NCBI GenBank assembly: GCA_964558905.1
Contig: CAZLGP010000238.1
Location: 8,231 to 72,230, forward strand
Reading direction: 5' to 3'
Origin: an uncultured Thermoanaerobaculia bacterium
GTDB taxonomy: Bacteria; Acidobacteriota; Thermoanaerobaculia; Gp7-AA8
Length of the DNA: 64,000 bases
The first letter of the stretch is position 1. The number at the start of each line of letters is the position of its first letter. Under the pieces are notes generated by a model that was given only the letters and a program-made list of their open reading frames with translations, did not search any database and had not been told where the DNA came from. Positions 2,557-51,849 of this stretch are shown here, in pieces. The position numbers and the translations under genes are program-made.

Positions 2557-2740
2557 GAGGAAATAGCCCCCGGCTTCAGGCCGTGTTGCCCGAATGCCCG
2601 CGTAACGGGCGATAGGAGTAGCCCCCGGCTTCAGGGCGTGTTGTCCGAATGCCCGCGTAGCGGGCTATAGGGAGTAGCCCCCGGCTTCAGCCGGGGGACC
2701 CGGGCCTGGCATCCGATCAGCCCGCGTAGCGGGCGAAAGA
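2557..2740. repeat. Three tandem copies of a ~55-bp REP-like unit (CCCCCGGCTTCAG... hairpin plus GCCCGCGTAGCGGGC hairpin)
   Basis: Units start near 2557, 2613 and 2668. Each contains agcccccggcttcag and cccgcgta(a/g)cgggc. The same two hairpin modules recur at 25501-25550, 50055-50140 and 50625-50790. Confidence 0.85.
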
Positions 2741-2787: not shown

Positions 2788-3207
2788 TCAAGCCTCAGTG
2801 ACGGCTTCCCGGTCGCGCCTCTTGCTTCGGACTCGGATGAAGTGCCGGCTGTAGGCATCTTCGAGTGGTGGCTCTCCCGATCTCGAAAACCGCAGCCGCG
2901 TCTTCGGTCCCTTTCCCCAACGATGGTAGACGGTGGTGGACGGCCGGAGGTTGAGATCATGGACGTGCATTCGCAGGATTCTCAGGACACGGTTGGCCGC
3001 CGAGAGATTGCACTGAATGACTCTCTCGAGACACGAGACGCGACCTCGCCGCCAGTCCTCGACGGCTTTCGTCGTGAGCAACTTCATCTCGATGAAGACC
3101 TCGATCGGAGCGACGACGTCGCCTCTCGAGAGGAGAGCGTCGACCGCACGGACGATCCTCGGATAGAACTTGTCGGTGCGGTAGTTTTCGAGAGTGACCT
3201 TCTTCAT
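2788..3207 (-). CDS. Hypothetical protein (139 aa), family not recognised
   Basis: Clean ORF starting MKKVTLENYRTDKFYPRIVRAVDALLSRGDVVAPIEV. A ~95-bp, ~88% identical, permuted fragment of its 5' end lies at 4205-4300 on the other strand, which argues that this is a real gene family. Confidence 0.5.
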   Translation of the reverse strand: MKKVTLENYRTDKFYPRIVRAVDALLSRGDVVAPIEVFIEMKLLTTKAVEDWRRGRVSCLERVIQCNLSAANRVLRILRMHVHDLNLRPSTTVYHRWGKGPKTRLRFSRSGEPPLEDAYSRHFIRVRSKRRDREAVTEA

Positions 3208-3544: not shown

Positions 3545-3756
3545 GCGATTTCTGCGAGCAGCGCTCGGCTGGCCTCTTCGAGAAATGCGAAGACCTGCTC
3601 CCGCGACACGCCCGGGTAGTTCTCCAGGAAGTCTTCGATCGTCTCACCGCCCTCGAGGAAATCGATGAGCGCATCCACCGGCACTCGTGTTCCTACGAAC
3701 ACCGGCGTGCCGCCGAGAATCTCCGGGTCGGAGTGTACGATCTGCTTCGGATCCAT
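3541..3756 (-). CDS. DUF433 antitoxin-like protein
   Basis: 71 aa. PEILGGTPVFVGTRVPVDALIDFLEGGETIEDFLENYPGVSREQV is the DUF433 signature. 4-nt overlap with the DUF5615 gene. Confidence 0.8.
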   Translation of the reverse strand: MDPKQIVHSDPEILGGTPVFVGTRVPVDALIDFLEGGETIEDFLENYPGVSREQVFAFLEEASRALLAEIA

Positions 3757-3893
3757 GACGATGAAGGATACCGCGCGGCCTGGTCGCAGCCAACGCCCGC
3801 CACGGCGAGAACCGAGGTGCCCTCGATGCCTTCTCCAAACTACCCGACCACAGCCTCATCACTTCTATGCGAAATGCCGCGTGATCTGCGACT

Positions 3894-4112
3894 TCACAGC
3901 TTGTCGAGATCAAGAGGCTCTGTCAACCCAGCGCGGTACTCTTGACGTGCTTCTTCAGCCATGCCAGCGAGCAAGTCCTGTGATCGCGCGAACAGTTCGC
4001 CCCACCGGCGTTCGGATTCGAGTTCGGCCAGCATGAAGCCGGCGAAGGCTTCCCGCTCCTCTTCAGGGAGTTTGGCCGTCTCAGCGATGACTTTCTCCAA
4101 AAACCTGCCCAT
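3894..4112 (-). CDS. Putative type II antitoxin / addiction-module component, orphan
   Basis: 72 aa, MGRFLEKVIAETAKLPEEEREAFAGFMLAELESERRWGELFARSQDLL. Resembles small antitoxins that pair with RelE/ParE-type toxins. No intact toxin ORF in the 138 bp downstream. Confidence 0.45.
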   Translation of the reverse strand: MGRFLEKVIAETAKLPEEEREAFAGFMLAELESERRWGELFARSQDLLAGMAEEARQEYRAGLTEPLDLDKL

Positions 4113-4204
4113 GAGGGTGCATTCTACTCGCGAGGGGGCTGGAGAAGAAACGGGAACCGAAACGTCCTGGCGATCTCGCGGGCTACACAGATGACTCGCC
4201 TCAC

Positions 4205-4300
4205 CGTGCGGTCGAGGCGCTCGTCTCGAAAGGCGACGTCGTCGCCCCGATCACTCTCGACAACTACCGCACCGACAAAGTTCTACCCGAGGATCGTCCC
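4205..4300 (+). pseudogene. Circularly permuted, frameshifted fragment of a paralogue of gene 2788..3207
   Basis: Plus-strand translation RAVEALVSKGDVVAPI|TLDNYRTDK(frameshift)FYPRIV. The intact gene reads TLENYRTDKFYPRIVRAVDALLSRGDVVAPI. One extra A causes the frameshift. Confidence 0.55.
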
Positions 4301-4312
4301 AGCCCGCGCGTC

Positions 4313-4900
4313 ACGAATCGGTGATGACCCTGGCGGCCGTGGCGGAAATCGGACCGCGACCTCGCGGAAATGGTCCACGACCGCGTCGAAATGGTCCGCG
4401 ACCTCGTCATTGCGATCAGTGACCTCACGGAAGAGGAGAGATTCTCGGACGCATGACGCCGCACGATCTCGAGAAAATGGTCGGGGATCCCACGTTTGTG
4501 ATTGGCGACCCCGAGCAATTGGTCTGTGACCCAACGGATTCGGTCGGCGACCGGATCCATTGGGTGGCACGACTGCCAGCGAGGGGTACCGCGATGGGAC
4601 ACGCCGGTGCTCGAAAGCAGGTGAAAATGGTCCACATACCTCGCGCGTGAGGTCGGGCAACCATTTCGATGCGGTCGCGAACCTTACGCGTGCGGTCGAC
4701 GACCATTTCGGCGCGGTGCCGGACCATTTTCGCGGAGCTCGAGCGAGGGCCCGCGCCGCGGCGCGGCAGCCACGCGCGCGGTGCGATCATCTCACGCGTG
4801 AGGTCGCAGACCGGATCGGTGCGGTCGGGGACCGGATCGCCGGCATGCTCGGACCGACCGCGTGCGATCGCCGTTCGGATCTCCGACGTCGGGGAAACGG
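4313..4900. repeat. Two inverted arrays of degenerate 21-bp repeats (about 10-11 units per arm)
   Basis: Left-arm units such as gaaatggtccacgaccgcgtc / gaaatggtccgcgacctcgtc start at 4345, 4367, 4388, 4409 ... 4557, keeping 21-bp phase. Right-arm units such as gaccatttcggcgcggtgccg start at 4659, 4680, 4701, 4722 ... 4852 and are the reverse complement. Near-palindromic centre at ~4625-4655. No long ORF spans the array. Confidence 0.8.
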
Positions 4901-4998
4901 AATGCCGGCGACGGACGACCGCGATCGTGTGGTCCCATGACCTCTTGACAGAACATCTGCCTTCGCGTTCAAAGGGCAACATACGAGGGGACACGAAA

Positions 4999-5259
4999 AT
5001 GAAGAAGATCGACGACTTTTCAAGCGGCACGCGCGGAGCGGTCGTTCCCGTCCCGCAAGGCAAGACGCGCATCACCATCCGGATCGATGACGACGTCCTC
5101 GATTGGTTTCGGGACCAGGTGAATGCCGCTGGTGGTGGAAACTATCAGACGATGATCAACAGCGCTCTCCGGGAGTTCATCGAGAATCGACGCGCGCCGC
5201 TCGAGAAGACGATTCGACGCGTGATTCGAGAGGAGCTTCGGAAGCGCGGCGCTGCGTGA
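4999..5259 (+). CDS. BrnA-type (ribbon-helix-helix) antitoxin, orphan
   Basis: 86 aa from the ATG at 4999. GKTRITIRIDDDVLDWFRDQVNAAGGGNYQTMINSALREFI is the BrnA antitoxin signature. A short upstream reading frame ends in ATGA overlap (...RVQRATYEGTRK*) and may be the last remnant of BrnT. Confidence 0.8.
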   Translation: MKKIDDFSSGTRGAVVPVPQGKTRITIRIDDDVLDWFRDQVNAAGGGNYQTMINSALREFIENRRAPLEKTIRRVIREELRKRGAA

Positions 5260-5329
5260 GACAGCTAGTCGCGACGGTCACCGCAGCTCTCTCCCTGGCG
5301 ACCATCTATCCGGATGCGCCGACGTTCTC

Positions 5330-5883
5330 GCTGTTCGACGCCGAATGATCTCGTGTGCGTCTGCGGGTCTCTTCGGTCAGCCCAACGCCTCGAACTGCGG
5401 TCGAAGGCGAAGACGGTGATGATCGCTGCGACGTGTCGCCACTCCGGTTGGACGCGTTCTGCGCTCGATTCCATTCCTCGGCGCCGTCCGTGTGGCGCAG
5501 ATGCTGGCCATCATGCGGACGCCACACCGCTTCCGAACGAAGCGGAATCTGTGGCCCTATGCCGGCCTGGCGGTGGTCAAGCACTCGAGCGCCGATCACG
5601 AATTCAAGGACGGCAAGTTGCAACGAACGAAGAAGCCACCGATGACACGGGCTTGAATCGGAACCACAACCCGATGCTGAAGGTGGTGTTCAAGGGAGCG
5701 GCGAATGCGGCCGCCTCGATGCCCGGGCCGTTGCGCGCCTTCTATGAGGCCTCGGTCGCACGAGGTGTCAAGGACGAACTGGCAAAGGTGACGCTGGCAC
5801 GCAAGATCGCGGCCGTGGCACTGCGCCTCTGGAAGCGTGGAGAGACGTTCGATGCGAAGAAACTGACGACGCAAGCGACATAG
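5330..5883 (+). pseudogene. IS110-family transposase, C-terminal remnant with several frameshifts
   Basis: Pieces in three frames: SIPFLGAVRVAQMLAIMRTPHRFRTKRNLWPYAGLAVVKHSSADHEFKDGK, then GLNRNHNPMLKVVFKGAANAAA...LRAFYEASVARGVKDELAKVTLARKIAAVALRLWKRGETF. The N-terminal DEDD catalytic domain is absent. Confidence 0.65.
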
Positions 5884-6339
5884 CGCTCGGGGAGACGACG
5901 ATCGGCGAGAGAGGGTAAGCCACTTCGCGGTCGACGTTGATCCGGGACGAAGGTTCGAGGGAGAGTCTCAGCAACGACGTTCCGCCCGACAGTCAGTAAA
6001 GTCGAGGCACACGCCTAACCACAGTCCCCCTCGGATGACCAGAAGAAGCGTCAGGCCACGCCCGGATGCAGAGAGCGCGAGTCTCGGATAGAACCATGCG
6101 ACACCACCAACGGTGATTGCCGGCGACGCTTGGAATCGTCTGTAGTGATGATCGACGGAGGCGATGGAGATGAGCTCGCGGCGCACGACTGTTCCGCCCA
6201 CCCTGGTGTCCTCACGATCGGCGCGAACCGGTTGCGGCGTGACGCCGTGACGCTGGCGACGATGCAGGCAGCTCGGCTGCCGGACCTGGGCCGGGCCGTG
6301 CCAGCTGCAGTCAAGAGTCAGGCCGCCCGTGCTCGCAGC

Positions 6340-6981
6340 TCATTGACCAGTTCCGCCAGACGGTCCTACGCGCGACCTTGGGTCTGGTGCCCAATTTTCC
6401 AGCTGAAGTTCGGTAATATCATCAGCGTTGAGAACATAAACCTTGGCATCGCGCGCGAATCGATCAACGAGGATATATCTTCCTTCGGTATAGGCGGCTA
6501 CCATTAGGCCTCGATACTGAGGAGCGAGCTGACCTGTTTCTAACTTGACACTAACAACGCGCGCACGTTGGGACGGGCCAATGAATGCTTGCGCCGTCCA
6601 ACTGACCAAAAGCACGGTTACGAACAACGTGAAAGCTATCGCGACAGCTAGCTGCCGACTCGTCAGCGTTCGTGCGAGATTGCGCCAAGCGAAGGGCTTT
6701 CCCCGCTGTCGCTCGATCGCGTGAGCAACCCAATCAAGCAAAAGCAATGGGAGTACAAACAGAAGAAGCCCCAAAGCCCCGCCGTCCATCAGGTATTCTT
6801 GTAACGGTAGCCGCGGGATCAACTCCTGCGGAACACCACGATAGAAGTATGTGGCCGAGTCGGCGGCAAATCTCCACGCGAACAGCAGCACCGACGCGAT
6901 CGCGAGGGCACCGGCCGAGTCGCTGACAATCTTGAACCGTGCAGGCGGTATCTCAGAGGCATTCGCGGGTGGCATCGCCAT
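6340..6981 (-). CDS. Hypothetical multi-pass membrane protein (start uncertain; ORF extends to 7245)
   Basis: Hydrophobic segments GALAIASVLLFAWRF, GGALGLLLFVLPLLLLDWV, LAVAIAFTLFVTVLLVSW. Visibly lower GC than the flanks. Start at MAMPPANASE (6981) chosen by eye. Confidence 0.5.
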   Translation of the reverse strand: MAMPPANASEIPPARFKIVSDSAGALAIASVLLFAWRFAADSATYFYRGVPQELIPRLPLQEYLMDGGALGLLLFVLPLLLLDWVAHAIERQRGKPFAWRNLARTLTSRQLAVAIAFTLFVTVLLVSWTAQAFIGPSQRARVVSVKLETGQLAPQYRGLMVAAYTEGRYILVDRFARDAKVYVLNADDITELQLENWAPDPRSRVGPSGGTGQ

Positions 6982-51744: not shown

Positions 51745-51760
51745 TAGGATAACGGGAGTT

Positions 51761-51849
51761 CTGAGTGTTGAGTCCTGAGTCCTGAGTGCTGAGTGCTGAG
51801 TGCTGAGTGCTGGGTGCTGAGGACTCAGGACTCAGAACTCAGGACTCGG
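51761..51849. repeat. Hairpin of tandem heptamers (CTGAGTG/CTGAGTC vs GACTCAG)
   Basis: ctgagtgttgagtcctgagtcctgagtgctgagtgctgagtgctgagtgctgggtgctgag|gactcaggactcagaactcaggactcgg, in a divergent promoter region. Confidence 0.85.

Follow-up and report, generated by a model that had tools for sequence, protein, structure and literature searches.

Between positions 4343 and 4897 of the window, by which we mean the whole stretch of 64,000 nucleotides analysed here, two arrays of 21-bp repeats face each other, and the question is whether such a structure is the remnant of genes, a binding site for the product of a neighbouring gene, a part of a mobile element or something of its own kind. Genomes of soil Acidobacteriota are full of inverted tandem-repeat hairpins, and the element described here is a rare version of them in that its unit is long and rich in information and its copies, present in two species, are clearly homologous. 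We put at roughly 0.55 the probability that it belongs, as one copy, to a small family of dispersed foldback arrays that is non-coding, restricted to the lineage and represents a long-unit variant of the inverted tandem-repeat architecture. Judging from the layout of the units, such an array would probably be recognised by a protein that is encoded elsewhere.

The element is 555 bases long and has a GC content of 0.65, which equals that of the window. About 16 of its approximately 26 unit-lengths can still be recognised as the consensus unit (Table 1), and its borders are defined as the positions where similarity to a paralogue on contig C175 begins and ends in the alignment. The left arm points to the right and the right arm to the left, and the two meet head to head at 4645/4646. 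The initial annotation had described two inverted arms of 21-bp repeats with a nearly palindromic junction, and both descriptions were confirmed. Identity at lag 21 amounts to 0.48 in 4345-4577 and 0.47 in 4659-4875, compared to the best value over all lags in each of 500 shuffles, which had a mean of 0.33 (highest 0.40) for the first and of 0.37 (highest 0.44) for the second segment. The repeat-finder check suggested at that time likewise gave a 21-bp periodicity, with TRF reporting period 21 at 4345-4408, 4660-4729 and 4798-4839. Inverted pairing of 4345-4408 with 4668-4731 extends over 64 nt with 70% complementarity and contains a 41-nt core at 83%, and at the junction 4625-4645 and 4646-4666 form a dyad with 21-nt arms, a spacer of 0 nt and 71% complementarity. 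Some details had to be revised. Unit coordinates and consensus were essentially right, but the left arm reaches 4645 and not 4577; the period of 21 stands, but the phasing is not strict and slips by 1-2 nt in places; and 4430-4474 and 4560-4620 no longer hold recognisable units. A Logan contig from SRR10083322 contains the array locus of the window with identical length.

Table 1. Coordinates of the array element in the window and of its copies in the same genome (copies are numbered along their own contigs).
Feature	Position	Strand or orientation	Description
Whole element	4343-4897	.	two arms converging at 4645/4646, together about 26 unit-lengths (21/22 bp each)
Left arm	4343-4645	+	units ">" with consensus AAATGGTCCGCGACCTCACG; mismatch and weight-matrix scans, TRF period 21, lag-21 autocorrelation
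Left-arm unit cores	starts 4347, 4368, 4389, 4410, 4475, 4517, 4538, 4625
Right arm	4646-4897	+	units are the reverse complement, CGTGAGGTCGCGGACCATTT; TRF, lag-21 autocorrelation, inverted-repeat and unit scans
Right-arm unit cores	starts 4646, 4668, 4689, 4710, 4797, 4818, 4861
Central head-to-head unit pair	4625-4666	.	42-bp imperfect palindrome, AAATGGTCCACATACCTCGCG / CGTGAGGTCGGGCAACCATTT
Degenerate stretch in left arm	4430-4474	.	no unit match, yet conserved in the C175 paralogue (pairwise alignment)
Further degenerate stretches	4560-4620 and 4731-4790		as 4430-4474: unit-likeness lost, conserved in the C175 paralogue
Paralogue on C175	5262-5793	reverse relative to window	74% identity over window 4343-4897
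Array copy on C227	5480-6100
Array copy on C211	70330-71040

The initial annotation had also proposed to search the rest of the genome and its relatives for the unit, and such searches by BLAST, nhmmer and weight matrix did reveal arrays elsewhere, next to unrelated genes. The host assembly (G000; 7.4 Mb in 322 contigs, 96.6% complete, with the window on contig C238) contains four arrays by BLAST and nhmmer, namely that of the window and those on C175, C227 and C211. In a genome-wide weight-matrix scan, phased clusters of the unit appeared at exactly these four loci and nowhere else in the genome, and the window array is therefore far beyond chance. At least eight more copies were found on a 5-Mb contig of G029, an uncultured Acidobacteriota MAG of the same genus, four of which are young and 81-90% identical to one another, and a single copy in G027, also of this genus. 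Every copy in the three genomes has the layout ">>>> <<<<", and the elements of the family are 0.55-0.7 kb long with about 10 tandem 21/22-bp units per arm. Eight copies on the G029 contig (C3) lie on the plus strand at 1.85, 2.05, 2.50, 2.97 and 3.09 Mb and on the minus strand at 3.26, 4.22 and 4.52 Mb, two of the latter being one segmental duplicate. Their orientation (+++++---) switches once along the chromosome, where sampling of the GC skew was noisy.

Altogether, arrays occur in 6-8 of 35 genomes of the genus and are absent from the two closest relatives of the host (G013 and G028). Subfamilies have no more in common than unit and layout; the end sequences unique to young G029 copies are subfamily-specific and were not found in the host genome. 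Other genomes of the genus contain one-directional 21-bp arrays (42-bp in G007), in which the GTC-N3-GAC core is kept and the spacers are different. Arrays of types other than that in G000, G029 and G027 were seen in G007, G011, G023, G024 and G033. In a sample of 400 genomes of the phylum the unit was matched at background level only, and a search of all GTDB species returned only the G029 MAG and one short run (about three units) from a Thermoanaerobaculia MAG. Matches in JGI metagenomes were at chance level, plasmids and phages gave no match to the unit, and in the literature on the motif and on bacterial foldback elements we found no specific precedent. We conclude that these non-coding foldback arrays form a real family, which had not been described before.

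Other tandem arrays of related period were seen during these searches. A second 21-bp unit family, GAACCACGAGGTCTCGCGCAT, with a GAGGTC core in common, is present in the host genome at C94:5650-5770 and C70:18857-18993; the C94 array is located downstream of a p172-like gene, as is an array in G023. The G007 array (C28:239030-239420; 6030-6420 of locus L071) consists of about nine copies of a 42-bp unit, all in one direction, and this unit is made of two 21-bp halves, GGGTTGTGGACCCAATTCATC and GGGTCATCGACCCTGTGATTC. A genome from a different family of the phylum (G109:C69:42238-42374) carries seven copies of a near-perfect 21-bp tandem repeat, GGTCTCTGACCGCTCCCTCAC.

A period of 21 bp is also one of seven codons, and the units, when read outward, are translated into R-E-V-A-D-H-F-like heptads. 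On these grounds a decayed pair of divergent genes for heptad-repeat proteins had been suggested, and there are actinobacterial proteins (Longispora locus) that use similar DNA for REVxDQx repeats. However, the right arms of C227 and C211 are built of 22-bp units, and among the differences between the four young G029 copies are five 1-nt indels in addition to unit-sized ones. Substitutions in these copies are distributed over the putative codon positions at 0.14, 0.13 and 0.17, and a profile of 139 units shows a conserved block of ten contiguous positions and no three-base rhythm. The initial annotation had stated that no long ORF crosses the arrays, and this is the case: the heptad frame in the window drifts from frame to frame, and an intact ORF was found in none of at least 13 array copies from three species. 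Intact heptad-repeat proteins, for which a search had been proposed, were not found either, since an ORF across an array had no homologue among 5.8 billion protein clusters. Because of the 22-bp units, the 1-nt indels, the frame drift and the lack of codon periodicity and of homologues we rejected the gene or pseudogene reading, to which we give next to no probability. The array element is non-coding.

Conservation is instead seen at the level of the DNA. The conserved core of the unit is GGTC-N3-GAC followed by CTCACG, and the spacer drifts: among the young G029 copies core positions vary by 0-8% and spacer positions by 20-43%. Since the copies are dispersed, this difference between core and spacers indicates constraint at the DNA level. 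The array of the window was retained relative to that on C175 (74% identity), whereas the intergenic DNA between the array and the DUF433 gene shared by both loci is unalignable. Together with the persistence of the unit across species, these observations point to selection or conversion working on the DNA itself. Arms gain or lose whole units between copies, and each core is located next to a short A-tract. The spacing within the core differs between the arms of C227 and C211 (GGTC-N3-GACC versus N4), which makes it a poor fit to a strict dimer site.

The same data bear on the reading that the element is functionless, VNTR-like tandem DNA that grew in both directions from a palindromic seed and was kept alike only by unequal exchange. 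Unit-sized indels between copies would be expected from such a process, one arm consists throughout of amplified copies of a mutated 22-bp unit, and tandem arrays are made on a huge scale in this genome. However, the core is kept relative to the spacer among dispersed copies, which is beyond the reach of local slippage, and species and subfamilies agree in unit and layout while differing in flanks and end sequences. We therefore regard this explanation as quite unlikely.

The extent of tandem array formation in the host is considerable. TRF identified about 2200 arrays with short units (1374 of period 7, 505 of period 8 and 366 of period 9), and at least 544 inverted pairs of these (354, 150 and 40 for 7, 8 and 9 bp, respectively) have the potential to form hairpins. 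Examples of 7-9-bp tandem arrays in the window are found at 300-384 and 51756-51847. We did not detect heptamer substructure in the 21-bp unit, as identity at lag 7 and lag 14 (0.21-0.26) was at background, and there is thus no support for a descent of the unit from the 7-9-bp arrays. True higher-order repeats of three heptamers do occur elsewhere in the genome (C54).

Inverted arms could also suggest a gene for a long hairpin or another structured RNA. Single-strand folding is more stable than that of shuffled sequences (z-scores of -3.9 for the window, -8.8 for C227 and -8.2 for G029), and the ends of the G029 subfamily are polar and asymmetric. However, neither a consensus fold nor a specific hairpin received covariation support (covariation term +1.26), and the few double changes were at chance level. 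Left units were not complementary to right units in a register-specific manner (permutation p 0.1-0.99), indicating that the arms share a consensus and not a maintained register. Promoter-like and terminator-like sites were not found in the array, and no Rfam 15 family matched within the element. The only Rfam hit was a weak, sub-threshold match to Acido-Lenti-1 (22.9 bits) outside of it, in a REP-like repeat at 2667-2697. This repeat belongs to a region of the window (2560-2740) with three REP-like repeats of about 59 bp, GTAGCCCCCGGCTTCAG...GCCCGCGTAGCGGGC. An RNA gene is accordingly a very remote prospect in our view.

A further suggestion had been that the array is an iteron- or centromere-like binding array for the adjacent ribbon-helix-helix (RHH) protein BrnA. 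The window copy lies between a 72-aa gene and a DUF433-DUF5615 gene pair on the minus strand and an orphan brnA on the plus strand, and the only Pfam matches among the neighbours are DUF5615, DUF433 and BrnA. The brnA gene (4999-5259) has no brnT partner, and downstream of it remnants of an IS110-family transposase were noted at 5314-5883 (weak Transposase_20 match, Logan gene calls). The C175 copy has a paralogous DUF433-DUF5615 pair on one side and on the other a different antitoxin-type gene, with a TIGR02574 match below the curated cut-off, followed by a toxin-like gene that appears ParE-like by eye. The array on C227 (within C227:3259-8949) is found between a gene for a RecD2-type helicase and a RAMP gene of a type III CRISPR-Cas system, and that on C211 beside a conserved L,D-transpeptidase gene, where a variable insert of 2.5 kb, containing an integrase remnant, has its edge. 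In G029 the arrays adjoin genes for a kinase, CheB, a secreted protein, HicB (L067) and XRE proteins (L099, L100), among others. Genes flanking the arrays are mostly convergent on them.

A role as operator, centromere or iteron array for the genes next to it (the BrnA-like RHH protein gene to the right, DUF433/DUF5615 with the 72-aa gene to the left) would fit the position between divergently transcribed toxin-antitoxin-type genes here and at C175, the HicB and XRE genes beside other arrays, and the occurrence in G024 of a different 21-bp array between the same XRE/p177-like gene pair. The period of 21/22 bp also agrees with the phased 17-22-bp repeats, spaced by about two helical turns, that are typical for iterons. 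Nevertheless, the unit stands by unrelated regulators and mostly by none, and window and C175 represent one duplicated ancestral arrangement and hence count as a single event. The brnA gene occurs once in this genome, beside one of four arrays, and is next to none of the arrays in G029 and G027. A single brnA contrasts with the four arrays of the host and the eight or more of a congener, whose neighbours are unrelated; the array is therefore not tied to BrnA, and we rejected a BrnA-specific operator. The only promoter-like sequences near brnA, -35/-10-like hexamers upstream of it (4946-4974, by eye and below the scan threshold), lie outside the array, so that the array neither accompanies the regulator from locus to locus nor overlaps its promoter.

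Hallmarks of a replication or partition site were likewise missing. The window neighborhood contains no rep or par genes, and thus neither an initiator gene (Rep) nor an operon of partition NTPase (ParA/ParM) and adaptor as in parC/ParR systems; the neighbours of the other copies are unrelated. No DnaA box (TTATCCACA) was found within 1 mismatch in 3700-5400, the 40-mer with the lowest GC content of this region (42.5%, at 4981) is outside the array, and neither an AT-rich unwinding region nor parS is present at the window array. Taken together with the lack of plasmid or phage matches, we consider an array for the adjacent genes highly unlikely in this specific form. A generic phased protein-binding array is conceivable, and since several copies are beside small DNA-binding genes (BrnA, DUF433, HicB, XRE) the arrays may have a regulatory role.

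Candidate partner genes were evaluated individually, and in tests of the gene 2788-3207 homologue, XRE, p177 and HicB none was found to co-occur with the arrays. XRE and HicB are absent from the host genome, and a homologue of p177 is present there without an array. The unit had been reported to resemble the 5' end of gene 2788-3207, but the similarity comes down to a 12-nt match at background level, and homologues of this gene exist only in G000, G029 and G008, in G029 far from any array. Functionally, the array is thus not specifically linked with either brnA or gene 2788-3207. At 4204-4299 the window does contain a permuted fragment of this gene: its 5' end is represented by two halves of 49 bp each, at 90-94% identity, with half B preceding half A. 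The fragment abuts the array and lies outside the element. In G024 (C8:166940-167140; 2440-2640 of locus L134) the space that separates a divergent XRE gene from a p177-like gene is occupied by nine 21-bp units, each with the 15-bp palindrome GACACGATCGGTGTC, and a homologous gene pair flanks two arrays of the main type in G029 (L099, L100). The G024 array may serve a mobile element as a control region with multiple operators.

Dispersal over unrelated contexts raises the question of mobility, and the initial annotation had considered joined ends of a mobile element. We retained this as a rival explanation, that of a non-autonomous foldback or MITE-like element whose units are sites for a transposase or recombinase and whose two ends are joined without cargo. 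The arrays are multi-copy, their distribution in the genus is patchy, with closest relatives lacking the element, and the copies reside in variable or accessory DNA. Furthermore, a site size of 21-22 bp and inverted ends resemble the ends of Tn7/Mu-type transposons. The expected traces of transposition were not found, however: border alignments of 4-8 G029 copies, the young ones having well-defined borders, revealed neither terminal inverted repeats nor target-site duplications, and a genome-wide scan of the 96.6% complete assembly revealed neither single arms on either side of a cargo nor a parent element in which such end repeats enclose a transposase. The end sequences are subfamily-specific, and the flank common to copies is of variable length; it is a REP element in one pair and a multi-kb segment containing an XRE gene in another, which suggests spread by segmental duplication or recombination. 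Empty-site comparisons at C211 and L063 showed relatives that differ by multi-kb variable inserts and not by clean insertion of an array. A transposon-end origin of the arrays is possible, but as an explanation of the element in its present form we consider it unlikely.

We return to the foldback array recognised by a protein encoded elsewhere. It would act, if at all, as DNA rather than as a gene. Its two arms may pair into a long imperfect hairpin or cruciform, and since 21 bp correspond to two helical turns, the conserved cores would all be exposed on the same side of the duplex, as one would expect if such a protein bound cooperatively. Copies would have spread with variable amounts of flank into accessory regions such as toxin-antitoxin clusters, a CRISPR locus and the surroundings of an integrase remnant. 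The partner tests yielded no candidate for the binding protein, but the 21-bp unit with its conserved core can be used as bait for it, and the copy history of the array is traceable, unlike that of 7-bp microsatellite arms. A binding protein, if found, may shed light on the origin or the role of this whole class of repeats; if none is found, the array is an ordinary selfish or neutral repeat. A more speculative idea, which we treat as a long shot, is that the arrays are a counterpart of eukaryotic foldback elements, the first in prokaryotes, and consist of gene-less mobile DNA whose arms of about 10 candidate sites would attract an enzyme encoded elsewhere, which either mobilises the element or is sponged by it in defence and accessory islands.

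Several known systems share features with the array. Plasmid iterons (P1 incC/incA, F, the 22-bp iterons of R6K, RK2) and those of the lambda origin are 17-22-bp tandem repeats spaced by about two helical turns, some with internal dyad symmetry, and their arrays occur in both orientations. The units described here are similarly tandem and similarly spaced, but the array has no initiator gene, DnaA box or AT-rich unwinding region, and it is chromosomal, has 4-8 copies and was matched by neither plasmids nor phages. Partition centromeres to which RHH adaptors bind (R1 parC/ParR, pSK41 parC, TP228 parH/ParG, the omega heptads) resemble it in having phased repeats in two blocks around a centre, and an RHH-type gene adjoins the window array; unlike in these systems there is no partition NTPase, and BrnA belongs to an antitoxin family and is absent at all other copies. 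Tn7/Mu-type transposons carry multiple sites of about 22 bp in inverted left and right ends, and the arms of eukaryotic Foldback (FB) elements are inverted and made of tandem subrepeats. Inverted arms of repeated units of about 22 bp are thus common to the array and these elements, but the array is without terminal inverted repeats, target duplications and a transposase partner, and its approximately 10 sites per end are, to our knowledge, far more than Tn7/Mu-type elements carry. REP, BIME and REPIN sequences are, like the arrays, dispersed, lineage-specific palindromic repeats in intergenic DNA, mostly downstream of or between convergent genes. REP units are, however, single hairpins of 20-40 bp in alternating orientation, whereas the arms of the array are long and one-directional.

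Another comparison is with the intergenic DNA of Xanthomonas, in which Rehm et al. (2015, PMC4692102) described convergent pairs of heptamer tandem repeats (GGGAATC). Like these and the 7-9-bp pairs of the host, the element at 4343-4897 consists of two close convergent tandem arrays in non-coding, intergenic DNA with the potential to form a stem-loop. It differs from heptamer hairpins, which have units of 6-9 nt and mutually complementary arms, in that its unit of 21/22 bp is about three times longer, its arms are not complementary in register and the element as a whole measures about 600 bp. Furthermore, its copies are homologous over their whole length across loci and species, which sets them apart from locus-specific expansions.
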